Shown here in pieces: positions 4,232 through 37,065 of a DNA stretch of 39,583 nt. How positions within the stretch are numbered: the first letter of the stretch is position 1; each line of letters begins with the position of its first letter. Position numbers and translations under genes: made by a program. The notes beneath the pieces were generated by a model that had not been told where the DNA came from, ran no database searches, and saw only the letters and a program-made list of their open reading frames with translations. The stretch spans positions 1 to 39,583 of IMG/VR virus record IMGVR_UViG_3300021978_000180. One strand, 5' to 3'. This DNA comes from a virus (Duplodnaviria > Caudoviricetes).

Positions 4232-4274
4232 AGGTTAATTCTGAAGTGGCAGGATTATTAGGACAGGTTGGACA
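4232..4274 (-). promoter_or_regulatory. Putative activator-dependent late promoter, copy 1 (upstream of portal)
   Basis: TGTCCAACCTGTCCTAA (4274-4258), 20 nt, then TAACCT (4237-4232). Confidence 0.7.
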
Positions 4275-4275
4275 A

Positions 4276-4910
4276 TTACATTTGTATTTTTATGTGTTCG
4301 ATAAATTTTACTAAATTATCTAATTCAGAATTTACATCAAATTTATAAAAATTTGTATTTTCTTTGCACACATCTATTATAGGTTTTTCAATATAAACCT
4401 TACCTATTAAACAAGAGGGAACTTTGTTAAAAATAATCCACTTTTCTCCATTAGTGAGTATAGGATAAAAATTACAGTGCTTTTTTATTCCTTTGGAAAT
4501 TTTATGTCCTTTACAATTTTTATAAATCTTGCATTTCTGGTAAATGTAATTTCGCAGTTGACTTAACCCATCCCTATCTTTTACCTTAAGTTGGCCACTT
4601 TCTTTTTTTAATGCCCCTTACCATTTAAATCTCTTGGGAATTCGTCACTTTTTATATTTTTAACTTCAATGAAAAGCACCAACTTTTCGTTGTTATAAAC
4701 TTCTATATCTCCTTGCAACTTCTTTGAATTTCTATTTGCTCTTTTTATAATGTCTGGAGAAAAAACATCAAATCCTGCCAAACATAAGACAGGTTCAACT
4801 AAGAAAATTTGAGTATCTATTTCTGAGACGAAATCTTGATTTTTCAACTTGTTTAGGTTTTCTATTATTCTATTTTTGAGAAAACTTTTTAGGTATTTTG
4901 ATTTCTTCAT
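4276..4910 (-). pseudogene. Frameshifted HsdR-N-like PD-(D/E)XK nuclease gene
   Basis: 5' part (4910-4608) has GDIEV...FIEVK. The -1 frame (4617-4276) continues with QLRNY...ILTNGEKWIIF to a stop at 4278-4276. Confidence 0.65.
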
Positions 4911-4911
4911 T

Positions 4912-5178
4912 TTAGTGCAATTGTTTTAATTTTTCATAAAGTAAAGGCGTATTTTTTTTTGTAATGAATAATATAGATTCATAAACTCCCGGTTCTGTTA
5001 TCTGATTTTTAAATTTTTGCAGAATTTTATCGACCATTTCTATTAATTCTGGGTCTTCTGTTTCTAACGCTCTCTCCATATCGTAAATATCTACTCCAAC
5101 AAATTCATCAACATCAAAATCTAAAAGTATATATTTAAGGGCGTATTTAATATCTTCTTTATCTTTTACCTTCGCCAT
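4912..5178 (-). CDS. Small acidic protein, candidate immunity protein for the upstream MuF extension
   Basis: About 88 aa, acidic, overlaps the 3' end of the MuF gene. Confidence 0.55.
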   Translation of the reverse strand: MAKVKDKEDIKYALKYILLDFDVDEFVGVDIYDMERALETEDPELIEMVDKILQKFKNQITEPGVYESILFITKKNTPLLYEKLKQLH

Positions 5179-9410: not shown

Positions 9411-9453
9411 AAGATAGAATGTGAAGATATAAAAAGTTAGGACAGGTTGGACA
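9411..9453 (-). promoter_or_regulatory. Putative late promoter, copy 2 (upstream of protease-capsid module)
   Basis: 17-bp motif (9453-9437), 20 nt, then TATCTT (9416-9411). Confidence 0.7.
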
Positions 9454-9463
9454 GTTTGTAATA

Positions 9464-9823
9464 TCAGTAGTAAAGGCTTACAAGTTTAACTACTTCTTCA
9501 AAGGGAATTCTTTTATTTTTGTCTTCCAATGTTAAAATCTGACCTTCCATTATTCTATGGTGAATAGTTGAACGGGAGATTCCAGTTATTTTGGAAACTT
9601 CTCTAATAGAGTAAGAAGCTTTTACTTCGCCTAATTTTTCAATACTTTTTTGTTTTATCCAGCTTTCATAATCTATGATTACTCGTCTTTGGAGATTTAA
9701 TTTTTCTTTCAATTTTCTGTTTATTTTTGCCAATTCTTCATTTAACTGTTGTTTTTTTCTTATTAAATCCCATATTTCTTCCTGTATTAAACTCCCTTCC
9801 CTTACAGGAATTTTTACCCCCAT
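9464..9823 (-). CDS. Coiled-coil plus C-terminal excisionase-like HTH protein; candidate late activator
   Basis: YSIREVSKITGISRSTIHHRIMEGQI...RIP resembles HTH_17/Xis-type winged HTH. Confidence 0.6.
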   Translation of the reverse strand: MGVKIPVREGSLIQEEIWDLIRKKQQLNEELAKINRKLKEKLNLQRRVIIDYESWIKQKSIEKLGEVKASYSIREVSKITGISRSTIHHRIMEGQILTLEDKNKRIPFEEVVKLVSLYY

Positions 9824-12649: not shown

Positions 12650-12692
12650 AAGATAAAACATATAGATAGGCAGTGTTAGGACAGGTTGGACA
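12650..12692 (-). promoter_or_regulatory. Putative late promoter, copy 3 (upstream of resolvase-terminase module)
   Basis: 17-bp motif (12692-12676), 20 nt, then TATCTT (12655-12650). Confidence 0.7.
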
Positions 12693-16068: not shown

Positions 16069-16110
16069 AAGATATATCAGGGAAGGGTAAAGGTTTAGGA
16101 CAGGTTGGAC
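16069..16110 (-). promoter_or_regulatory. Putative late promoter, copy 4 (spike gene, apparently leaderless)
   Basis: 16/17 motif match (16110-16095), 20 nt, TATCTT (16074-16069), 6 nt, then ATG. Confidence 0.7.
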
Positions 16111-16126
16111 GGAAGGTTAACAGCAG

Positions 16127-16648
16127 TTAAAGTCTTATATTAAATTCTCTCATGAAATCAAACAAGTGAATATATCTAATATTAAGCTGTCTACAAACAT
16201 CTGGAATTTTTATTTTTTTTCTATTTAAAGCTCCATCTGGACTTGGCATTTCTTCAGTTACTATAATAATTTCTCCTTCAATGTTATATGCTTTAGCATA
16301 TGCAATAAGAAAAGCATCAGCTTTTTCTGCATCTAAGAATTGTTCTTTTGCCCTTTCTTTATAATGGTCATGGTCATTGACCCAGAGGCTAATTTCAGTA
16401 TATGCTTGAAGAACTCTTTCGTCAGTTTCAGTTATTAGAATTTTATTTTTATCAATATTATTAATCCACTCAATTAAGTAGTCATTTCCTCTAAGTATTT
16501 CTTCTTTTACTTTATCGATAATAAACACATTTCCATTAGGTTGATTAATGATATTTGACAGATGGTCCCAAAATGAAGGTGCTATATCTACATTATAATA
16601 GTTCCTATGCGGTGTAATAATGCTACTTGTATCTATAATGTATTTCAC
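16127..16648 (-). CDS. PIN-domain protein (DUF4411-like)
   Basis: YIIDTS, FWD, ADAFLIAYAK, IVTEE and KIKIPDVC motifs. Confidence 0.85.
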   Translation of the reverse strand: MKYIIDTSSIITPHRNYYNVDIAPSFWDHLSNIINQPNGNVFIIDKVKEEILRGNDYLIEWINNIDKNKILITETDERVLQAYTEISLWVNDHDHYKERAKEQFLDAEKADAFLIAYAKAYNIEGEIIIVTEEMPSPDGALNRKKIKIPDVCRQLNIRYIHLFDFMREFNIRL

Positions 16649-17804
16649 TTTCCCATCCCTTTGCCATTTTCTTTAGGAAGTTTTCTAAAGTTTTAAATTT
16701 CATTCTAGTTAAATGAGAGGCATCTATAAAAGAAATAAAGTTATTATTCATAGCATCTATAAGAAGCGTTATAAAGCGATTACTTATTTTATTCTTTTGC
16801 GTATTATAGTAATCACCATATTTTTCCTTTTTTTCTTCTTTTTCAAGTTCCTTTAATCTTATCTTATAATCTTCCATAAGAAATCTATATTCATCTTCTT
16901 TAATCAATTTTAGTTCCAGAGCTCGTATCAACAAAACCATTTCACTTACTTTAAATACTTTAGAAAGTTGTTGGAAATCTTTGCTAAACTTTTCTTTAAA
17001 AGTTCTTTCTGGAACCAATAACTCAACAGCGACTTTGTTGGCTAACCTTTCTAAAGAGATGTTAAATATATCAAAATCAGTAATTTCGCTTTCACCTAAA
17101 AATATATGTGCTATTTCATGAGCCAATGTGAAAAGTTGTATAGATTTAGCCTCATTTGTATTAATAAACACAATTGGAGCAAAGTCATCTATAAGAGAAA
17201 AGCCTTTAAATCCTCTAAGTTTTTTACTATTATTTCCAAAAAGTACACTATCAAGAAAAACAAAAATACCAGCCTTCTCAGCTTTATATCTTAAATATCT
17301 AAAGGCATCTGTTCTACTTTTTACTTCATTTACTGTCCAATTTTCAGGAAGTTCAAGATATTTTCTTACAAGAGATGCAATCTCTTTTGAATCACTTAAT
17401 CCTTTAGCTATACCAACATATTCCAATTTTTCATTGCCAAGTTCTTGCAGATATTCGTTTAAAAAGTCTTGCTTTTCTTTTATATCTTTTATTAACTCCT
17501 TAACTTCTATTGGAAGTTTTTCATTTGGTTGTTTTCTGAAGTAAGGAATTTCTTCTATTTCTTTGTTAATAGGTAGTTTTTCTATAATCAAATAACCAAA
17601 AGGAACATACGCTCTTTTAGCAAACTCTTTTGCTTGTTTTATAGTCAAAAAGTAATAATTTTGTTCTTTATTTTTTAAGAAATTTTCTTCTAATTTTTTC
17701 TTATCTTCTTCATCTAATCTTTCCAATACATCATGTATGTATTTTTCATTTAATCGGATATAAATTCTGCCTCTTTTTTTAAGAAATTTTTCTTCTTTAA
17801 TCAT
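16623..17804 (-). CDS. ImmA/IrrE family metallopeptidase
   Basis: GFSL...PIVFIN...FTLAHEIAH (HExxH)...ERLANKVAVELLVP; overlaps the PIN gene. Confidence 0.88.
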   Translation of the reverse strand: MIKEEKFLKKRGRIYIRLNEKYIHDVLERLDEEDKKKLEENFLKNKEQNYYFLTIKQAKEFAKRAYVPFGYLIIEKLPINKEIEEIPYFRKQPNEKLPIEVKELIKDIKEKQDFLNEYLQELGNEKLEYVGIAKGLSDSKEIASLVRKYLELPENWTVNEVKSRTDAFRYLRYKAEKAGIFVFLDSVLFGNNSKKLRGFKGFSLIDDFAPIVFINTNEAKSIQLFTLAHEIAHIFLGESEITDFDIFNISLERLANKVAVELLVPERTFKEKFSKDFQQLSKVFKVSEMVLLIRALELKLIKEDEYRFLMEDYKIRLKELEKEEKKEKYGDYYNTQKNKISNRFITLLIDAMNNNFISFIDASHLTRMKFKTLENFLKKMAKGWESEIHYRYK

Positions 17805-17903
17805 CCTTTTAATGCCTACTTTACGGTTAAAATAATTAATATTAATATCGCTAAAATTCTTTTATTAGTCTATCAAGATCGTCATAAAAATTTAACCATT
17901 TCT

Positions 17904-19040
17904 TTAACTATTTTCCCTCATTAACCTATTCAAAACAGCTGACAGATAAAAAAAGTTAACATCAGTTAAAGGTCTAAATATCAATGCGGGTCCTGTTTCT
18001 TTTTTTATTTCTATCACTCCCTCATCTTCATATATATTAAAGTCCAAGATTTTATCCAGCTTTATAGAAGTGGTCTTTTTCTGACCTACGAATATAAATC
18101 TTTTGTTTGTTATATAGATCGATCCTATATCTTCTGTTTTTAAAACATCCTGACTGCTTGTTATTCTTCCAGTCCCTGTGTAAAATCTTACTCCTTTTGC
18201 AACTTTGAAACTTAATCCAATACCGCCATAACTAACTTTTTCTTTTTTCCATTTCTGGAGCTCGGCTTTTTGTATTTCAAAATAACATTCTTCGTTCTTT
18301 TGGAGATTTATAGGACAGGGGATTGGGTTTAGTGGCTGATTCATCATTAAATATACACTATACAAATCCTCTATTCTTTTCTGTGTTTTCTCATCAAGTT
18401 CTATATTTAAGCCTTTTGTTAACCTTTCTATATATTCTTTTTCTTCAGGTGTAACCATGTTATCTTCAAAGATTTTTCTTAGCTCATTGGATATGAAGTT
18501 TGTAACTATCATAGAGTATAACTTTTTAGCATCTTTATCACTAATACCTAAAATATCTTTAACCTTGAGGAGTGTCTCTTTTTCAATTTCTGAAAGTTCT
18601 CCATCTCTGATAAAGATTTCTATTAATTTTTTGTAAAGGTCTATCTTGTCTATGCTTATACCAAGTTCTTTTGATAGTTCTAGAAGCTCTTTAAACTTAT
18701 CCCAATCCTGTTTCAATGCATAGCTATAAAGGCTTGAAAAAACTGCAGATTTGATTTGTTCTTTTTCCTGAACATTCTTAAACATATTTTTAAAGTCTAT
18801 ATTGCTAACATCCATAGAAATAATTTCAGAAAGCTTTTTCTTTGACTCATTAAGTCTTTCTTCTTTTTCTGCATTTTTTTGAAGTTTACGCTTTGTAAGG
18901 AAAAAGGTTGCTGGAATCGCTAATATCATTGAGATATAAATAGCCGTATCCCCTTTGACTCCAATCAAAGTAAGAATAACACCTATCCCTATATAAGATA
19001 GGAACCAGAATAAAAATCCCCATAAGATTTTCTTTGCCAT
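17904..19040 (-). CDS. Membrane-anchored hypothetical protein (2 N-terminal TM helices, C-terminal PH-like domain)
   Basis: Two hydrophobic helices; DGELSEIEKETL and GSIYITNKRFIFVG motifs; downstream of the repressor on the same strand. Confidence 0.65.
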   Translation of the reverse strand: MAKKILWGFLFWFLSYIGIGVILTLIGVKGDTAIYISMILAIPATFFLTKRKLQKNAEKEERLNESKKKLSEIISMDVSNIDFKNMFKNVQEKEQIKSAVFSSLYSYALKQDWDKFKELLELSKELGISIDKIDLYKKLIEIFIRDGELSEIEKETLLKVKDILGISDKDAKKLYSMIVTNFISNELRKIFEDNMVTPEEKEYIERLTKGLNIELDEKTQKRIEDLYSVYLMMNQPLNPIPCPINLQKNEECYFEIQKAELQKWKKEKVSYGGIGLSFKVAKGVRFYTGTGRITSSQDVLKTEDIGSIYITNKRFIFVGQKKTTSIKLDKILDFNIYEDEGVIEIKKETGPALIFRPLTDVNFFYLSAVLNRLMRENS

Positions 19041-19069: not shown

Positions 19070-19756
19070 TTATAACTTGCTTAAATTTACCAATATTCTT
19101 CCTATTATTTTTATCTCTGCCTGCTGGTCTTCTGTTATTTCAATGTCATTATATTCTGGATTATCTGATTTAAAAATCAGCTTGTTTCCTTTTCTATCTT
19201 TTTTGAATCTTTTTACAAATAATTCATTGCCTATACGAAATACATAGATTGAACCTTCTAAAAGGAAGTTTTCATATTCATAGAACTTTCCGATAAGATA
19301 ATCTCCAGGTTTTATGGTTGGATACATAGAATCTCCATAAGCTTGTATCATAAAAAGTCCATTTCCAGAAGATATACCAAGTATAGCCTGTGCGAAAAGT
19401 CTGTCTATTTGAATTGGTTTTGGTTCTGATTCTATAGCTTCTACACCGTTGCCAGCAGATGCATATATATCATAAAAAGATACTTGAAAGTATTCTTTAA
19501 AACTTTTTTGAAAATGCATAGAGGTTTGTAATTGAGGAACTCCCGCAAACATCTCCCCTTCTCCTGTCTTTAACCATTCCTCATTAACATTAAATTCTTT
19601 TGCAATGAGCTTCAAGGCTGGTTCCGAGGGAATCCTATCTCCACTTTCCCATTTTTGCACTGCATTTAAACTCTTTCCTATCTTTTCGGCAAATTCCCTT
19701 TGAGATAAACCTAACATCTTCCTAAGCTGTTTTATTCTCTGTCCTATATTTTCCAT
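19070..19756 (-). CDS. CI-like repressor (XRE HTH plus S24 peptidase)
   Basis: IGQRIKQLRK...SQREFAEKIG...WESG HTH; ASAGNG cleavage site, GDSMYP and VKR catalytic motifs. Confidence 0.93.
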   Translation of the reverse strand: MENIGQRIKQLRKMLGLSQREFAEKIGKSLNAVQKWESGDRIPSEPALKLIAKEFNVNEEWLKTGEGEMFAGVPQLQTSMHFQKSFKEYFQVSFYDIYASAGNGVEAIESEPKPIQIDRLFAQAILGISSGNGLFMIQAYGDSMYPTIKPGDYLIGKFYEYENFLLEGSIYVFRIGNELFVKRFKKDRKGNKLIFKSDNPEYNDIEITEDQQAEIKIIGRILVNLSKL

Positions 19757-19791
19757 ATTTTAGGTAGTAAATTTTGCAACATTATCCTCAA

Positions 19792-19876
19792 AAGTGTCCG
19801 ATTCTCCACTTGGTGATTTTTCGGACACTTCCGTATAAAGTGTCTAATTTTTTACTTGGTAATTTTTTAGACACTT
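19792..19876. repeat. Two tandem 39-bp imperfect palindromes
   Basis: AAGTGTCCGA...ACTTGGT...TCGGACACTT (19792-19830) and AAGTGTCTAA...ACTTGGT...TTAGACACTT (19838-19876). Confidence 0.85.
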
Positions 19877-19884
19877 CAACTTAA

Positions 19885-19946
19885 TATATATACTTGTATA
19901 CAAAATCCTATTGACAAATTGCATACAAGTATATATACTTATATAC
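19885..19946 (+). promoter_or_regulatory. Early rightward sigma70 promoter with flanking operator-like inverted repeats
   Basis: TTGACA (19911-19916)-N17-TATACT (19934-19939). TATATATACTTGTAT at 19885 is inverted as ATACAAGTATATATA at 19923. Confidence 0.8.
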
Positions 19947-19971: not shown

Positions 19972-20157
19972 ATGTCAACCACAGTTAATATTAAACAGGA
20001 AAAAATAAGTAAAGACAAGGCAGTTTTAGAACTCCACCAAGCAGGTTTAAGTATCAGACAAATATCAAATATTTTGCAAATTCCAAGAACCTCTGTATTC
20101 AGAGTAATCAAAAAGTGTAGTTCCAAAAAGGGAGTAGAAAATGGAAGAGTTGATTAA
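19972..20157 (+). CDS. Small HTH regulator (Cro/Ner-like position)
   Basis: LELHQAGLSIRQISNILQIPRTSVFRVI; GGAGG RBS; first gene divergent from the repressor. Confidence 0.75.
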   Translation: MSTTVNIKQEKISKDKAVLELHQAGLSIRQISNILQIPRTSVFRVIKKCSSKKGVENGRVD

Positions 20158-20290
20158 AGTTCTAATTATTGGGTTCTCCATAATAGGGGCATCATTAATA
20201 ACACTAATAATAATGCTCTATGTGAAGTTCTCGAATTTAGAAGACATAATCTCTCAAAAATTTGAGAAAGAGGAAAAGAATGAGAAGTAA
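20141..20290 (+). CDS. Small single-TM protein, 49 aa (cassette 1, sense gene; absent from ORF track)
   Basis: GGAG RBS; MEELIKVLIIGFSIIGASLITLIIMLYVKFSNLEDIISQKFEKEEKNEK. Confidence 0.6.
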   Translation: MEELIKVLIIGFSIIGASLITLIIMLYVKFSNLEDIISQKFEKEEKNEK

Positions 20291-20443
20291 ATACAAAAGA
20301 GTAACTATTTTTGCAGAAAATGTTCTTGTTTCCTTTCTATGTTTATCTGCTTTGAAAAATAAAATTGTTGAAATTGCCATAAAAACAAAATCTAAATATC
20401 CCTTATTTATAAGCTCTATAAAAATATCAGCAAATTTTTCCAT
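20237..20443 (-). CDS. Small 2-TM protein, 68 aa (cassette 1, antisense gene, apparently leaderless)
   Basis: ATG 6 nt after TATGGT of motif copy 5; two hydrophobic helices with a basic loop. Confidence 0.6.
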   Translation of the reverse strand: MEKFADIFIELINKGYLDFVFMAISTILFFKADKHRKETRTFSAKIVTLLYLLLILFLFLKFLRDYVF

Positions 20444-20449
20444 ACCAAA

Positions 20450-20492
20450 ACCATACCCCAAAACCTCTCCTTTCTTTAGGACAGGTTGGACA
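20450..20492 (-). promoter_or_regulatory. Putative late-type promoter, copy 5 (antisense to early operon)
   Basis: 17-bp motif (20492-20476), 20 nt, then TATGGT (20455-20450). Confidence 0.65.
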
Positions 20493-20515
20493 AAAACATT
20501 TCAAGGAGGCTAAAA

Positions 20516-20797
20516 GTGAAAACCGTAGATATACAAGCACAAGTCCGAAAATACGGAAGACTAAATTTCATCAAGGGAGAACTGCTCAAAAGAGGTCTCA
20601 CTCTCAAACAGTTTGCTGAAATTCTGGGTGTATCTGAAAGCTTTCTGTATCAGATGCTACACAAAGACGCCAAGTCCCGCCGAGTAGCAAAGGAAATTGA
20701 GAGATTTTTGGAAGTCCCAGAAGGTTCGCTTTTTCCTTATGTTCTGGAGCCTGTGGAAAATTCTAAGAAAAATTCTGAAGAATTTAGGAAGGAGTAG
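20516..20797 (+). CDS. Ner-like HTH regulator
   Basis: IKGELLKRGLTLKQFAEILGVSESFLYQML...SLFP; GTG start after GGAGG. Confidence 0.75.
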   Translation: MKTVDIQAQVRKYGRLNFIKGELLKRGLTLKQFAEILGVSESFLYQMLHKDAKSRRVAKEIERFLEVPEGSLFPYVLEPVENSKKNSEEFRKE

Positions 20798-20800
20798 AAG

Positions 20801-21004
20801 ATGGACAAGGCAGTCAAATTCTTAATCTACTCACTTGCTGTATCAGTTTTGGCATTGTCGCTCTCAATAGAGAAAAACAGAACTCTTGAAATAGTTTTAG
20901 GGATAGCTATTACTGCTGGATTCATTTTTAGCTATTTGGCAATAGTAAAAATCTGCTCAAGAAAAAATAAAAAACAAAATACCTACGACAATAAGGAGTT
21001 CTGA
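20801..21004 (+). CDS. Small 2-TM protein, 67 aa (cassette 2, sense gene)
   Basis: AGGAG RBS; two hydrophobic segments and a basic tail. Confidence 0.65.
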   Translation: MDKAVKFLIYSLAVSVLALSLSIEKNRTLEIVLGIAITAGFIFSYLAIVKICSRKNKKQNTYDNKEF

Positions 21005-21178
21005 AATGTTTAAAGTGGTTTTGGAAGTTTCTTTTAAGCCTTTCTTTTCTGCAGAAACGGCAATTAAGGCAAAAACTGCAGAAAAAAGCAAACATATAAA
21101 ACCAATGATAATACCAGAATTATTCAAAAGGAATTCTTTACTCACTTTAAGCACCAAAAAAACTAACTTAACTTCCAT
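20957..21178 (-). CDS. Small membrane protein, 73 aa (cassette 2, antisense gene, apparently leaderless)
   Basis: ATG 6 nt after TATTGT of motif copy 6; two hydrophobic helices with a basic loop. Confidence 0.6.
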   Translation of the reverse strand: MEVKLVFLVLKVSKEFLLNNSGIIIGFICLLFSAVFALIAVSAEKKGLKETSKTTLNISELLIVVGILFFIFS

Positions 21179-21184
21179 ACAAAA

Positions 21185-21227
21185 ACAATATCCTAAAACC
21201 TTTCCTGTCTTTAGGACATGTTGGACA
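21185..21227 (-). promoter_or_regulatory. Putative late-type promoter, copy 6 (antisense)
   Basis: TGTCCAACATGTCCTAA (one mismatch, 21227-21211), 20 nt, then TATTGT (21190-21185). Confidence 0.65.
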
Positions 21228-21270
21228 AATGAAATCCATAAAATCAAAAATTTATAGGAGGTAACAGGTA

Positions 21271-21738
21271 ATGGCACACGCTAACTTTGGATGGGTTTAC
21301 AAAAAGTTCATCAAGAGGGTAAATCCTCTCATCTTTCAGGTGAGAGCTGGTATTTCTCACAAGACTGTTTACAGCTGGGCTCAAGATGCAGACAATCCAT
21401 ACTACCGCAGAGATCCTCTTTCAAAAGCTGTTGACATTTTAGACATTCTCAAAGACGAAACACCAGAACTTTTCCAGCAAGTTCTACAAGAAATACTTAG
21501 AAGATACGGCTATGTTCCAGTGAAACAAGAAAAACCTTCGGAAGATGTAAAACTCTCCAGACTTATGAAAGAGCTTAACGATGTTCCCCTAACAGAAGTA
21601 AACATTATGGAAGATGGAAGGATAACAAAAGAAGAACTACTTCAACTTCTGAACGAAATTGATGAAGCCCTTGCAGTTCTCAATGAAAAAAGAGCGATTG
21701 TCAGACAGAAAGTAATAAGTCTTAGGGAAGAGTATTAA
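21271..21738 (+). CDS. Phage regulatory protein, CII-like family
   Basis: N-terminal HTH-like segment (GISHKTVYSWA) and C-terminal MEDGRITKEE motif. Confidence 0.65.
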   Translation: MAHANFGWVYKKFIKRVNPLIFQVRAGISHKTVYSWAQDADNPYYRRDPLSKAVDILDILKDETPELFQQVLQEILRRYGYVPVKQEKPSEDVKLSRLMKELNDVPLTEVNIMEDGRITKEELLQLLNEIDEALAVLNEKRAIVRQKVISLREEY

Positions 21739-21751
21739 AGGGGGCAATAAA

Positions 21752-21985
21752 ATGGAAAGTTTAATTCTTTCTTTAATAATAGGTATAGGTATAGTTTATA
21801 TGATAATAGACTTTATATTTGACAATACGAAATCTATACTCAAGCTAATTTCAGCTCTGCTTTTTGCTCTTATTGTTTCTATATCCATTTGGATTTTCAA
21901 AATGGAAAATTTATCTAAGCACAACTTTAAACACTATAACAATAGCACTTATAAAGTTGAAAATCATAAACAAAAGGAGAATTAA
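21752..21985 (+). CDS. Small 2-TM protein, 77 aa (cassette 3, sense gene)
   Basis: G-rich RBS; two hydrophobic segments and a polar tail. Confidence 0.65.
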   Translation: MESLILSLIIGIGIVYMIIDFIFDNTKSILKLISALLFALIVSISIWIFKMENLSKHNFKHYNNSTYKVENHKQKEN

Positions 21986-22138
21986 TATGGCGACATTAAT
22001 ATACCAAGGTTCTCTATCTGTTTTTGGAATTTGCAATATTGCTTTACCAGTTTTCACTATAGATAGAACATTTATCCAAAGAACTAATATCAAAATTCCC
22101 TTATGTGAATTTTGTAGACACTTTATAAACTCTACCAT
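21911..22138 (-). CDS. Small 2-TM protein, 75 aa (cassette 3, antisense gene, apparently leaderless)
   Basis: ATG 6 nt after TATGGT of motif copy 7; two hydrophobic helices. Confidence 0.6.
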   Translation of the reverse strand: MVEFIKCLQNSHKGILILVLWINVLSIVKTGKAILQIPKTDREPWYINVAILILLLFMIFNFISAIVIVFKVVLR

Positions 22139-22144
22139 GCCAAA

Positions 22145-22187
22145 ACCATACCCCAAAACCTCTCCTTTCTTTAGGACAGGTTGGACA
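22145..22187 (-). promoter_or_regulatory. Putative late-type promoter, copy 7 (antisense)
   Basis: 17-bp motif (22187-22171), 20 nt, then TATGGT; 22135-22188 is nearly identical to 20440-20493. Confidence 0.65.
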
Positions 22188-22213
22188 ACACTAAACCAAG
22201 GAGGGTTAAGCAG

Positions 22214-23251
22214 ATGAGAGAACAAGTTGAAAAACTTACTTTAAGGCACAGAAGACCTGATGTCTATAAACTTTTGACAGAGCTTGGATGCGAATTTAAA
22301 GGAATTGATTATGTATCTATCGATGACCTTGTTCTTGACCAGGGTATATATCCAAGAGACAAAACAGATTGGGAAAGAGTTAAGCTTTATGCTGAAGATA
22401 TGGAAAATGGTGATATTTTTCCACCTTTGCTGGTAGAAGAAGAATACAAGGTAATTCTTGATGGAAACCATAGATATTATGCAAGCAAAGAAACAGGTAA
22501 AGCTATTATGTGGATTGAAAAATGGGAAGTTCCTGAAGGTCTTTACCCAGTGGTAGCTCAAGCAGTGAACACTGAAGAAAAAGAGATAGATACCCCCTTA
22601 ACCCCCACAGAAAAGAAAAAAGCAATATTAAGGGATTGGGAAATATTAACGCAGTATGACAAAAAAACCAGAAAAGAGCTAATTGCAAAAGTTTTAAAAA
22701 CTTCTGTTTCATATGTTGACAAGGTTTTATCTGAAGCTGGGATTATCAAAAGTGAGAAGGAGGAGTTAAAAAATAAGGTTTTAGAACTTCATAAACAGGG
22801 TTATAGTTTAAGAGAAATAGCTAAAGAATTAGGACTAAATCACCAAACAGTAAAAAATTATCTTGATAAGTGTCTAAAAAATTACCAAGGTAAAAATTTA
22901 GACACCCCTCAACCCACCCAAGAAGAACCCACTAATGAAGAAGAAAACAACTGGGACGACTGGAACGAAGAGGAAACAGAAGAAGAACCAGTAGCAGAAG
23001 AAAAACCAAAGCAGAAAAAAGATTCTTCAAAAGAAGAAAAGAAACTTTTACACCCGAATCACATACTTGAAAGAGATAAAAATGCAATCTGGGATGCAGT
23101 GATAGAAATAGAATTCCATTTCGGAGAAGAAAAAGCTTTAGAAGTTTTAGAAGAAATCTATTTCGCTTATAAAGAGAGAAAGCACAAAGGATTAACCATT
23201 TACAAAGATAGAAGAGCACTATTCGTATACAACCAAAAAAGAGGAAGCTAA
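22214..23251 (+). CDS. ParB/Srx N-terminal domain protein with HTH
   Basis: FPPLLV...ILDGNHRYYA ParB box; HTH GYSLREIAKELGLNHQTVKNYL; acidic linker. Confidence 0.8.
   Translation: MREQVEKLTLRHRRPDVYKLLTELGCEFKGIDYVSIDDLVLDQGIYPRDKTDWERVKLYAEDMENGDIFPPLLVEEEYKVILDGNHRYYASKETGKAIMWIEKWEVPEGLYPVVAQAVNTEEKEIDTPLTPTEKKKAILRDWEILTQYDKKTRKELIAKVLKTSVSYVDKVLSEAGIIKSEKEELKNKVLELHKQGYSLREIAKELGLNHQTVKNYLDKCLKNYQGKNLDTPQPTQEEPTNEEENNWDDWNEEETEEEPVAEEKPKQKKDSSKEEKKLLHPNHILERDKNAIWDAVIEIEFHFGEEKALEVLEEIYFAYKERKHKGLTIYKDRRALFVYNQKRGS
22868..22907. repeat. Third copy of the 39-bp palindrome (40 bp, inverted), inside the ParB-HTH gene
   Basis: AAGTGTCTAAAAAATTACCAAGGTAAAAATTTAGACAC closely matches the reverse complement of 19838-19876. 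Confidence 0.8.
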
Positions 23252-24705: not shown

Positions 24706-25398
24706 ATGCAAGTAAAAACACACGCTTATGAAGAACTTGAAAAAGTAGTTTCAATGCTTCGTAAAACAATAAAAGATGGCAAACAAGGACTTGCAGTAAT
24801 ATCAGCAAATTATGGAGTTGGAAAAACTCAAGCTGCAAAGATGCTAACTAAACAGTATCCAGATGTTTTCTATATGAAAGTCTCTCAAACTCTTGATACA
24901 CCTTCAAAGTTTACAAGAGAACTAGCAAGAGTTTTAAATTCGGCTATTTCTAGAAGCTATCAGGAAACCTTAGAGTTTTTAGCAACCTATTTAGAAGCAA
25001 CAGGGCAAAATCCTATCGTAATTTTAGATGAAGCCCAACGCCTATTAACAAAAAGAATTTTAATGGGAGAAATAAAGGATATATTTGAAGAATTTCCAAT
25101 CAGGTTCGTTCTACTTGGAGACCTTGACCTTTTAAAGCATATAGGGAAATATCCAGCCATAAACAAAAGAGTAATAATAAGAAGGTCCTTAAATCCTCTC
25201 TCAGAAAAAACAATTAAGGAACTGGCTTCTGCATACAACATAAAAACAGATGAAAATCTACTCAAAATCGCAAAACAAAGAGGCTGGACCACAATAGAAG
25301 TAGATAGACTTCTCTATTACGCAAAAGGTATGAAACTCCAAAATTTAACAGAAAAAGAAATCAAAAAACTAATGAAAGCAGTAGAGGTATCACTATGA
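24706..25398 (+). CDS. Transposition AAA+ ATPase (MuB-like)
   Basis: Walker A ANYGVGKT and Walker B VILDEAQRL; directly after the transposase. Confidence 0.88.
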   Translation: MQVKTHAYEELEKVVSMLRKTIKDGKQGLAVISANYGVGKTQAAKMLTKQYPDVFYMKVSQTLDTPSKFTRELARVLNSAISRSYQETLEFLATYLEATGQNPIVILDEAQRLLTKRILMGEIKDIFEEFPIRFVLLGDLDLLKHIGKYPAINKRVIIRRSLNPLSEKTIKELASAYNIKTDENLLKIAKQRGWTTIEVDRLLYYAKGMKLQNLTEKEIKKLMKAVEVSL

Positions 25399-29681: not shown

Positions 29682-29724
29682 TGTCCAACCTGTCCTAACA
29701 ATCTTAGTGTTTAAAAATTAACCT
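29682..29724 (+). promoter_or_regulatory. Putative late promoter, copy 8
   Basis: 17-bp motif (29682-29698), 20 nt, then TAACCT (29719-29724); directly after the terminator. Confidence 0.72.
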
Positions 29725-30454: not shown

Positions 30455-31167
30455 TATATAAACCTAACTTCAAACTTATTGTTGGAGACAAAAAGGAAAC
30501 TCAAAATCTTCTGGAGTTTAAAATTTTCCAGTCTGCAAGATTCCATACTCAGTATTGTCAACTTAAAGTTTCCAAAATTGAAGCAAAATTAGATGACAGG
30601 GTGGAACTTTATCTTGGATATAAAAAGCTCTATCCAGTCTTTAAAGGTTATGTTACAGATATTTCAAACAAGAGAATTACATTTATAAAGGCGAAAGATG
30701 AATATATAAAACTCATAAACGAAAAAATTACAAAATCATTCAATAAAGTAACTCCCAAAGAAATAATAAGTTCTATTGTTAAACATAAGATAAAATTTAC
30801 GAAAAAATCATTTATCCAAAAACATCATTTCCCTATATGGAACGAATCTATAGACACAGCTCTAAGAAGAATCCAAAAAACATGGAATCTTAAAAACTTT
30901 ATCTGGTTTTTTGATATAGATGGAATATTTCATTTTCATGAATTTCAAAAAATATATGATTATCCTTTACATATAGACGAACAACTTATTAAAATTTTCA
31001 CACCAAGAAAAAACTATTCAGAAATTATCTTAACAAGACCTTTATTTGATATATATCCTCTTTATGGCATTAAAATATTAGGAAAAGATTACATAGTAGA
31101 AACCGTAATCCACACATATGAAAACCAAAAACTAACTACCACGCTTTATCTGTCCAACCTGTCCTAA
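30451..31167 (+). CDS. Putative baseplate hub / gpD-like tail protein
   Basis: VELYLGY...VFKGYVTDI and FDIDGIFHF patterns. Confidence 0.65.
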   Translation: MIYKPNFKLIVGDKKETQNLLEFKIFQSARFHTQYCQLKVSKIEAKLDDRVELYLGYKKLYPVFKGYVTDISNKRITFIKAKDEYIKLINEKITKSFNKVTPKEIISSIVKHKIKFTKKSFIQKHHFPIWNESIDTALRRIQKTWNLKNFIWFFDIDGIFHFHEFQKIYDYPLHIDEQLIKIFTPRKNYSEIILTRPLFDIYPLYGIKILGKDYIVETVIHTYENQKLTTTLYLSNLS

Positions 31168-36158: not shown

Positions 36159-36635
36159 ATGGCAAGTAGAAAATTAGAAGATTTACACCCAATAACACAA
36201 CAAAAAGCAAGGGAGTTTCTGAAATCGGCAGAGGAGCAAGGCATACAAATTTTAATCTACTGCACCTACAGAAGCCCAGAAGAGCAGGAAGTTTTATATA
36301 TGCAAGGCAGACTTGAGCAATTTGGAATAACACTTGAAGAGCTAAATGAGAAAAGATTAAAAATAGGCTTATGGAAGCTAACAGAAAAAGAAGCAAAAAG
36401 AAAAGTTACTAATGCCAGAGCTTGGCAATCTTTTCATCAATACGGATTTGCCTTTGACTGCGTTCCCTTGTCTGCAGGAAAACCAGACTGGAACAACAAA
36501 GAAGCCTATCAGACGCTCGGACAGATAGCAAAACAAGTAGGATTAGAATGGGCAGGAGAATGGAAAAGATTTCGTGAAATGCCCCACTTTCAAGACACAG
36601 ACACTTATACAAAAATCGTTAAAAGAGGCAAGTAA
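36159..36635 (+). CDS. Endolysin, M15 family peptidase
   Basis: TYRSPEEQEVLYMQGR, VTNARAWQSFHQYGFAFD and WAGEW...EMPHFQ. Confidence 0.92.
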   Translation: MASRKLEDLHPITQQKAREFLKSAEEQGIQILIYCTYRSPEEQEVLYMQGRLEQFGITLEELNEKRLKIGLWKLTEKEAKRKVTNARAWQSFHQYGFAFDCVPLSAGKPDWNNKEAYQTLGQIAKQVGLEWAGEWKRFREMPHFQDTDTYTKIVKRGK

Positions 36636-36636
36636 A

Positions 36637-37065
36637 ATGTTTAACCTCTTATCAATTATAGGTACCATTGTGGATAAAGTAGCAAACATTATAGACCAAA
36701 CAGTAGAAGATAAAGACTTGGCTGCACGAATAAAATCACAAATACAACTAACAATACTTACAAAAGAATATGAAAATATAAAAAAAGAATTAGAAGCTAA
36801 ACGAGATATTGTCGTTGCAGAAGCCACAGGGCACAGCTGGCTCCAAAGAAACTGGAGACCAATTACAATGTTAGTTTTTGTTTACATCATAGCACATAAT
36901 TTCATTATTGCTCCTTTATTCAACCTGAAATATCTTCCTATTCCTCCAGACATGTGGGAACTATTAAAGCTTGGAATGGGAGGATATATCATTGGAAGAA
37001 CAGTGGAGAAATCAGGACCCATAATCGTTGAGAAAATTTCTCAGGTATTCAAAAAAGGAGAATAA
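36637..37065 (+). CDS. Holin-like protein (3TM / gene-transfer-agent type)
   Basis: AEATGHSWLQRNWRP...MWELLKLGMGGYIIGRTVEK; follows endolysin. Confidence 0.85.
   Translation: MFNLLSIIGTIVDKVANIIDQTVEDKDLAARIKSQIQLTILTKEYENIKKELEAKRDIVVAEATGHSWLQRNWRPITMLVFVYIIAHNFIIAPLFNLKYLPIPPDMWELLKLGMGGYIIGRTVEKSGPIIVEKISQVFKKGE

Follow-up and report, generated by a model that had tools for sequence, protein, structure and literature searches.

What are convergent pairs of small membrane-protein genes doing in the early operon of a Mu-like prophage, and why does the antisense member of each pair lie behind what looks like a late promoter? The question is raised by a viral stretch of 39,583 nucleotides (nt) from IMG/VR record IMGVR_UViG_3300021978_000180 (Duplodnaviria; Caudoviricetes), called the window here and analysed over its whole length, whose early operon holds three such cassettes. 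Each cassette has four parts: a sense membrane gene (S), a stop-free sense frame that we call the bridge, an antisense two-helix gene (A) and a late-type promoter motif (Table 1). The sequence evidence indicates that the cassettes are real, conserved and hidden from annotation. We propose, giving the idea an even chance, that each is a swappable late-activator trap, with self-immunity provided by early transcription and by S.

Antisense genes behind a late-type promoter motif

The preliminary description of this DNA had outlined six open reading frames (ORFs) in tail-to-tail pairs, a repeat closing each cassette, and neighbours of the helix-turn-helix (HTH), Ner-like, CII-like and ParB-like kinds. 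All six ORFs were recovered, with Shine–Dalgarno (SD)-like sequences upstream of the S genes, and the S/A overlaps measure 54, 48 and 75 nt. The repeat forms a three-copy family of 83 nt, in which the other copies stand at 71% and 86% to the reference copy, and Pfam and PHROG matches bear out the HTH, Ner/Cro-like, CII-like and ParB-like neighbours. Inside the window, the three A proteins show little or no relation to one another, and the same holds for the three S proteins (shuffle z 0.3–4.3), in agreement with the earlier remark that they show no obvious mutual similarity.

The motif is the 17-mer TGTCCAACCTGTCCTAA, of which the window has nine copies at up to one mismatch. Allowing three mismatches gives ten matches against 0.13 expected by chance; the tenth (35544, three mismatches) was set aside. 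Six of the nine copies face structural operons, and three point backwards inside the early operon. A TANNNT hexamer lies about 20 nt past each of the six structural copies, and two of these copies open on an ATG at +32, a geometry that equals that of the three antisense genes and is kept in relatives. On the minus strand, the antisense copies (copy 2 with one mismatch) read 17-mer, 20 nt, TATGGT or TATTGT, 6 nt and ATG. The six copies at structural operons and their two leaderless starts favour the late-type promoter reading of the preliminary description, and we infer that the motif is the site of a phage late activator. Among 178 genomes of the host phylum, the motif (at most one mismatch) occurs in seven: four carry 6–9 copies, all in prophage stretches, and three carry a single copy. 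In view of this confinement to prophages, a host regulator was rejected as its owner.

Scans of sequence collections for the 17-mer returned 17, 38 and 31 stretches; most single matches in unrelated organisms (L013, L030 and L045 included) lack the hexamer and were discarded as chance. A variant resembling TGTCCCACCTGTCCTAA, present in three copies on one contig (G169:C62, at 4335, 8896 and 12359) and at G170:C137 1785, probably marks a further phage subfamily.

The arrangement of the A genes is rare by chance. Of 9,229 antisense positions in the early operon, only 12 have an ATG at +32 to +34 that opens an ORF of 65–85 amino acids with two hydrophobic segments; nine of these are A1, A2 and A3, and the other three belong to one motif-less shadow ORF (25558-25361). 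Across all cassettes, the A proteins span 68–81 amino acids and have two hydrophobic segments in eight of the nine scored, with one in L004 at the threshold used. In cassettes 1 and 3 (minus strand 20461 and 22156), and not in cassette 2, the promoter spacer contains an SD-like AAGGAG, followed five bases later by an in-frame TTG, which could let A be read from a longer transcript as well.

Conservation, selection and exchange

Comparison of related prophages uncovered ten further cassettes, differing in number, position and content. Family A (transposase 82–84%) comprises the window with three cassettes, L018/G003/G122 with two, L019–L020/G004–G005/G119 with one, L026/L101 with one, G129 with two and the fragment L070 with at least one. 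All 13 cassettes lie in the early operon upstream of the transposase, and in all 13 an ATG stands at +32 to +34 of a motif. The S2/A2 pair sits between the Ner and CII genes in the window and L026, and between the HTH and Ner genes in G129; the S3/A3 pair follows the CII gene in the window and L018. The relatives thus point to exchange of cassettes between phages and between positions, as had been suspected. Among the 12 A proteins compared there are about six unrelated families, none of them universal, and each phage carries one to three cassettes. No cassette was found in the distant relatives G042, G056 and G079 (two prophages); G067 comes without an early region. Three other candidates with CII-like matches (G101, G158 and G173) are not Mu-like at that locus, lack the motif and were rejected.

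Outside the overlap, the ratio of non-synonymous to synonymous substitution rates (dN/dS) is 0.25–0.35 for A (p 0.0006–0.009 in four pairs, not all independent) and 0.14–0.25 for S. Because A and the bridge have wobble positions in common, the value for A could in principle reflect the bridge. Purifying selection on A is also seen inside the S overlap (A3 with L004, p 1e-4; A2 with L026, p 0.007), and it points to A itself there, because the bridge is untranslated in that segment and the wobble positions do not coincide. This selection answers the concern, raised at the outset, that the antisense ORFs might be unconserved shadows of A-rich sense DNA. In 11 of 11 cases, the codons of S and A are in register, so that the charged tail of S mirrors the second helix of A.

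S-like genes also occur as orphans, without A or motif, in L026, L019 and G129 (all resembling the S of L006) and in L004 (resembling the S of G129). The L026 orphan retains an antisense remnant, the mirror of the second helix of A, which implies that A and its promoter were lost. The reverse, A without S, was not met in any of the 12 cassettes for which the contig includes the S side. As far as these sequences go, S without A and never A without S is the asymmetry expected of an antidote and its toxin.

The families have few relatives elsewhere. Among 1.84 billion protein representatives, A3 had one match, a relative called as a gene; a tblastn search with A3 against 50,697 phage records gave no match; a homolog search for the A3 family gave 161 candidates, none scored; and the best Atlas match (0.86) lay below the lead threshold. 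The search for the S3 family returned four proteins, all from these phages. As a separate observation, a joined region of G182 (19566–19913; L136/L137) has a convergent pair of a 100-amino-acid sense gene and an 85-amino-acid two-helix antisense gene right after its CII-like gene; no motif or bridge was found with it, and it was left out of the cassette count.

A stop-free bridge over each antisense gene

In all 13 cassettes, a third ORF, absent from the preliminary description, runs stop-free in the sense direction from S to the next gene. It starts at the end of S, mostly at an SD-led ATG, and stays open through 72–279 nt of promoter (276–279 nt in L004 and L006). Of the 12 scored, 8 have a stop that overlaps the start of the next gene; in the others the two are no more than 16 nt apart. 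The products are 77–158 amino acids long and unconserved in length and C-terminus. Openness over A alone proves little, because the wobble positions are common to both frames and the frame is often open by nature (probability 0.05–1.0 under synonymous recoding). The sequence evidence for the bridge is its start signals, its run through the promoter and its coupled stop. Substitutions are more conservative in A than in the bridge in four of five pairs. By exact sequence, none of six A proteins and all four S and bridge proteins looked up are present in a collection of 15 billion proteins; gene callers apparently annotate the bridge in place of A.

In a synthetic Escherichia coli system, a longer translated frame over a convergent gene gave stronger interference, and early stops abolished it (bioRxiv 2020.09.23.310730). 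We considered RNA structure hiding the SD sequence of the next gene and rejected it (z −1.6 to +0.3 in nine of nine regions; none of ten consensus pairs with a compensatory change). In L018, a 169-amino-acid antisense gene (4289–4975) with two N-terminal helices, its own SD sequence and a sigma70-like −10 element is spanned by a 219-codon bridge running from the first early gene to the Ner-like gene; it is a bridge cassette with a different, probably constitutive promoter.

A foreign motif in a second phage family

Family B (G001, G002 and G102) is also Mu-like, with a different transposase (26% identical) and with its own CII-like, head, terminase and GemA genes. Its late operons are preceded by a different element, the palindrome TGTTATATATAACA followed by 20 nt and a hexamer, in four, two and five copies, respectively (none in shuffles). 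G001 and G002 each carry the motif of the window once (at most three mismatches), directly before their A gene. A copy of the family-B motif with a hexamer of its own lies 36 nt ahead of it, so that two predicted promoters stand in tandem. Between the two phages, the foreign motif is identical at 17 of 17 positions, as against 37 of 58 in the spacers (Fisher p 0.0016), and their A genes are unrelated. In G102, a G001-type S3/A3 pair stands under the phage's own motif alone, leaderless at +33. The same S3/A3 cargo is thus found behind motif A (window and L018), motif B alone (G102) or both (G001), which implies that the sensor is exchangeable. G001 occurs in one genome together with the family-A prophage G122. 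As an aside, the family-B transposase at L088 12200–12760 has, close to its N-terminus, a lengthy run of short degenerate repeats.

A common late motif and divergent repressors

The late activator predicted to bind the motif is probably the MerR/Xis-like HTH protein encoded at 9823-9464. It is conserved at 82–92% in all five distinct family-A phages, with a nearly invariant helix-turn-helix, and has no match in families B and C. In all five, its gene ends 2–13 nt before a motif copy; G001 has an HTH-like gene placed likewise with respect to motif B, as do G056, G067 and G079 with respect to a third motif. A predicted model of the protein weakly resembles the HTH domains of MerR, Xis and BldC (best E 0.024). 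The CII-like protein and that of the gene at 25395 are alternative candidates, for which PDB sequence searches gave nothing under E 0.03. The five family-A phages have five different repressor recognition helices and operator regions, and one common motif; kin could therefore superinfect each other while the late motif stays common.

A proposed late-activator trap with self-immunity

The trap that we propose would work as follows. In the lysogen, the early operon is repressed and A would be silent. A heteroimmune phage, superinfecting or co-resident, with a different repressor and the same late activator, would fire the resident antisense promoters; leaderless A would then be made without S, and this membrane protein, predicted to be toxic or to block phage growth, would abort the infection. 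We infer both the leaderless transcription of A and its toxicity, or other block of phage growth at the membrane. During the prophage's own induction, the early operon would be read first, with ribosomes relaying through S and the bridge, sense transcription dominating and S present. Self-protection could thus be twofold: ribosome-coupled sense transcription over A, via the bridge, would favour the sense polymerase in collisions and supply antisense RNA, and S protein would already be in the membrane. Such self-immunity is needed because the promoter is the late motif of the phage's own family. Several cassettes and dual promoters would widen the range of the trap, and orphan S genes in early operons would serve as counter-defence.

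Support for the trap comes from the four-part structure of the cassettes, their conservation and shuffling; from a motif that also heads structural operons, is confined to prophages and is kept in a family with a different late motif; and from the diversity of repressors and the orphan S genes. A trigger in trans is favoured over an own-cycle switch because the second phage family keeps the foreign motif only at its cassette. The preliminary description had spoken of an early/late switch of membrane effectors, with toxin–antitoxin-like pairs, superinfection exclusion and lysis timing as options: the toxin–antitoxin-like option is now the best reading, the evidence points to a trigger in trans rather than a switch in the phage's own cycle, and lysis timing and exclusion become rivals.

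Several observations weigh against this proposal. The only pair to speak for selection on the foreign motif is G001 and G002, whose sequences are 50% and 26% complete; G102 has no foreign motif, and motif B was not seen in any family-A phage. Behind a second antisense copy of the family-B motif (G001 11988 and G102 24075; absent from G002) there is no conserved ORF, so an antisense late promoter need not come with an effector. Position and co-occurrence are the sole grounds for naming the activator, and how it is first expressed goes unexplained, its gene following the terminase in an operon that is itself headed by a motif copy. Were early transcription to be shut down late in the phage's own cycle, its activator would switch A on in that very cycle. 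Neither the A nor the S proteins match a Pfam or PHROG family, and their PADLOC matches are at noise level only. A codon-position test separates A from the bridge weakly (46 versus 36 changes, p 0.16, leaning to A and not significant). The orphan asymmetry also fits A genes landing on the tails of pre-existing early genes, the S1-like family pairs with unrelated A genes, a poor fit to strict cognate antidotes, and co-inheritance of S and A follows from physical overlap alone.

Alternative explanations

Could the A genes instead be late accessory genes of the phage's own lytic cycle, for lysis timing or for receptor masking that spares progeny or excludes latecomers, with S as ordinary early membrane genes or modulators? 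Their promoters have the same architecture as the phage's own late genes, leaderless starts included, the G102 cassette is under its own motif only, and exclusion-type genes are typically variable. Yet the late region already has a holin (phrog_3427, 36574-37065) and an endolysin-like gene, no A family is common to all phages, and a backward A gene in the early operon with a bridge, like the intact foreign motif in two family-B phages, would go unexplained; we consider this account unlikely, though worth keeping in view. Another account, in our judgement quite unlikely, makes the antisense promoters themselves the early-to-late switch: the activator would shut off the early operon by polymerase collision and antisense RNA, with A and S as passengers. 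The position of all 13 cassettes upstream of the transposase agrees with it, as do the presence of at least one antisense copy in every family-A phage examined and the family-B copy without a conserved ORF. It is at odds with the variable number and position of the promoters, with purifying selection on A, with a bridge that should strengthen sense rather than antisense transcription, with the distant relatives that lack such a cassette, and with the foreign motif, which would let another phage silence family-B early genes to no benefit.

The promoters could also be establishment promoters akin to lambda pRE or phage 186 pE, perhaps activated by the CII-like protein and reading leftward into the repressor, so as to favour lysogeny when another phage is late. 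They do read towards the repressor gene and have a CP76/CII-like gene next to them, copy 2 is flanked by the Cro-like and CII-like genes, as pRE is in lambda, and a simple scan found no minus-strand terminator between A1 and the repressor. However, the same motif heads six structural operons, the family-C phages have a closely similar CII-like recognition helix and use another motif, and A would have no role, which makes this explanation improbable. Hardly credible is the view that the A ORFs simply shadow A-rich sense DNA or the bridge ORFs, the latter being what gene callers annotate. The exact-sequence lookups, the common wobble positions and the motif-less hydrophobic shadow at 25558-25361 speak for it; the motif-to-ATG spacing of +32 to +34 in 13 of 13 cassettes with lengths of 68–81 amino acids, selection on A inside the S overlap, the unconserved length and C-terminus of the bridge products and the A3 homolog called as a gene speak against it. 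The late-activator trap and these alternatives are not all mutually exclusive.

Relation to known systems

The earlier statement that no described system has this layout proved too strong: NonA has the trigger logic, and Tha/Ith and Tab/anti-Tab have the self-immunity layout. Neither this full layout nor a trap sprung by the phage's own late promoter was found in the open literature searched (titles and beginnings of abstracts; subscription journals and supplements outside its scope). In type I toxin–antitoxin systems of Bacillus prophages, such as TxpA/RatA and BsrG/SR4, a convergent transcript overlaps the 3′ end of a small membrane gene by 50–120 nt. The cassettes likewise have a small membrane-protein gene with a convergent 3′ overlap, but both strands carry ORFs under purifying selection, the antisense promoter is predicted to be activator-dependent, and no structured antitoxin RNA was detected in them. 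From holin/antiholin pairs they differ in that neither S nor A has a PHROG lysis match and a separate holin is present. Lambda pRE and phage 186 pE are activator-dependent leftward promoters in the early operon beside a CII-like gene. The cassettes resemble them in having a leftward promoter, here predicted to be activator-dependent, in that position, and differ in having three copies, each with its own ORF, of a motif that also heads the late operons and is not unique to cI establishment.

NonA of the Bacillus subtilis prophage SPbeta is a small transmembrane protein that is switched on by the SP10 sigma factors Orf199-Orf200 and aborts infection (PMC8270828), that is, one regulated by the sigma factors of the infecting phage (PMC4147584). 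The likeness is a gene for a small transmembrane protein in a prophage, with a transcription factor of the infecting phage as the predicted trigger. It is a likeness of logic, for which no sequence link was shown; the A proteins were not compared with the NonA sequence itself. NonA answers an unrelated lytic phage, whereas the promoter here is the late motif of the phage's own family (plus a foreign one in family B), and the cassettes are stacked and exchangeable, with a convergent partner, a bridge frame and a predicted HTH activator as trigger.

In the Tha/Ith system of Staphylococcus aureus prophages, overlapping antisense operons turn immunity off on induction through polymerase collision and an inhibitor protein, and Tha, a HEPN RNase, is made in the lysogen under the cI promoter and set off by tail proteins (PMC11087260). 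The cassettes resemble it in layout only, with predicted defence and inhibitor genes in overlapping antisense transcription units; in place of a HEPN RNase under a cI promoter, they have a hydrophobic predicted effector of about 70 amino acids behind a late motif, predicted to be silent in the lysogen and to have transcription as its trigger. In Pseudomonas phage JBD26, Tab is a backward defence gene with its own promoter in the lytic operon, a coupled sense gene (anti-Tab) neutralises it, and the pair is dispensable; Tab is constitutive, lies in the late operon between the genes for the small and the large terminase, and blocks tail assembly (PMC10884400). A backward gene with its own promoter inside a lytic operon, beside a coupled sense gene, is common to both; the cassettes differ in lying in the early operon behind a predicted activator-type motif. 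By the tests run, the cassettes are members of none of the systems compared, and the combination of a NonA-like trigger with a Tha/Ith- or Tab-like self-immunity layout was not found in the literature searched.

Prophage setting and hosts

The window is a Mu-like transposable prophage: a DDE transposase (phrog_310, E 1e-19; PF09299) and then a MuB-like ATPase (phrog_296, E 2e-20) follow the HTH, Ner-like, CII-like and ParB-like genes in the early operon, opposite a CI-like repressor (phrog_4). The ParB-like gene downstream of cassette 3 is phrog_1033, structural genes sit on both arms, and a tRNA-Ser gene adjoins the prophage. The hosts are, on present evidence, vent Aquificota, because a contig of a Hydrogenothermus sp. 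bin (L081) carries identical cassette DNA, with all three cassettes, the same motif contexts and the same A proteins, and Persephonella is the organism listed for proteins of related loci.

Behind the repressor, a cargo slot on the lysogeny side (16127-19040) differs in every relative and in the window encodes a DUF4411 protein, an IrrE/M78 peptidase (PADLOC RmrA/capP-like, E 1e-12) and a TerB/PH-like membrane protein (PDC-S48, E 2e-5). Two repeats that contain the motif bound an inversion of the central 21.7 kb (9453-31151), which includes all of the early region: head genes come after the HTH gene in the window and in the L026 phage, and tail genes in G003/G122, G004/G119 and G129. This reflects either recombination at the motif repeats or an assembly effect. 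A second repeat, resembling GGTAATTTTTTAGACAC (inverted form 31 nt, 94%), lies by the repressor start (19812-19876) and twice, inverted, inside the ParB-like gene (22863-22912); the corresponding two places in G182 hold a different palindrome, which also lies near one end of the prophage. The repeat is possibly a ParB site or a transposase enhancer.

Table 1. Coordinates of the cassette parts, motif copies and regulatory genes in the window
Feature	Position	Strand	Remarks
S1, 49-amino-acid single-helix membrane gene (predicted antidote)	20141..20290	+	Similar to S genes of L018, L019, G129, L004 (z 6-12)
A1, leaderless 68-amino-acid two-helix gene (predicted effector)	20237..20443	-	Weak similarity to L019 A gene (z 6.5)
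Bridge ORF 1	20280..20513	+	Over A1 and its promoter; ends 3 nt before Ner-like start
Predicted antisense late promoter 1	20444..20492	-	Motif 20492-20476, 20-nt spacer, hexamer 20455-20450
S2, 67-amino-acid two-helix membrane gene	20801..21004	+	Homologs L026, G129; dN/dS 0.14 outside overlap
A2, leaderless 73-amino-acid two-helix gene	20957..21178	-	72% identical to L026 A, dN/dS 0.30; homolog in G129
Bridge ORF 2	21006..21257	+	SD and ATG one base past S2 stop; ends 14 nt before CII-like start
Predicted antisense late promoter 2	21179..21227	-	Motif 21227-21211 (one mismatch), hexamer 21190-21185
S3, 77-amino-acid two-helix membrane gene	21752..21985	+	77%, 47%, 45% to L018, L004, G102; dN/dS 0.23-0.25
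A3, leaderless 75-amino-acid two-helix gene	21911..22138	-	76%, 45%, 44% to L018, L004, G102; dN/dS 0.25-0.35; fifth homolog P0009
Bridge ORF 3	21987..22217	+	SD and ATG one base past S3 stop; stop overlaps ParB start (ATGA)
Predicted antisense late promoter 3	22139..22187	-	Motif 22187-22171, hexamer 22150-22145
Motif copy before portal-region operon	4258..4274	-	
Motif copy before head operon	9437..9453	-	
Motif copy before Hjc-terminase operon	12676..12692	-	
Motif copy before gene 16062-15346	16095..16111	-	Leaderless at +32
Motif copy before gene 29757	29682..29698	+	
Motif copy before gene 31200	31151..31167	+	Leaderless at +32
MerR/Xis-like HTH gene, candidate late activator	9464..9823	-	PF00376, PF12728 weak; ends 10 nt before motif copy
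CI-like repressor gene	19070..19756	-	Recognition helix varies among five family-A phages
Early promoter TTGACA-17-TATACT and 19-nt inverted repeat (predicted operator)	19885..19939	+	Promoter near 19911-19939
Ner/Cro-like HTH gene	20516..20797	+	PF13693, PF01381, phrog_769
CII-like (Phage_CP76) gene	21271..21738	+	PF06892, phrog_101

Implications

If the proposal is right, a prophage would defend itself against heteroimmune kin by sensing their late activator, which is not cheaply changed, with one small gene each for trigger, effector and antidote. Insertion of 44 bases of promoter could add a second phage family to its range, a programmable sensor-effector design, and the small membrane genes that crowd early operons would be explained. 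Because gene callers miss the A genes, defence screens that work from proteins would not see the class; a search rule would be a backward late motif in an early operon with a leaderless ORF and a stop-free opposite frame. Beyond this, and as a possibility that we hold to be rather less than even, Mu-like phages of the vents may be engaged in a transcription-level arms race, in which stacked plug-in traps use their own, a rival's or a tandem late promoter as sensor, coupled to a concealed leaderless effector of the membrane, bridge and cognate antidote blind the trap to self, and rivals gather orphan antidotes.

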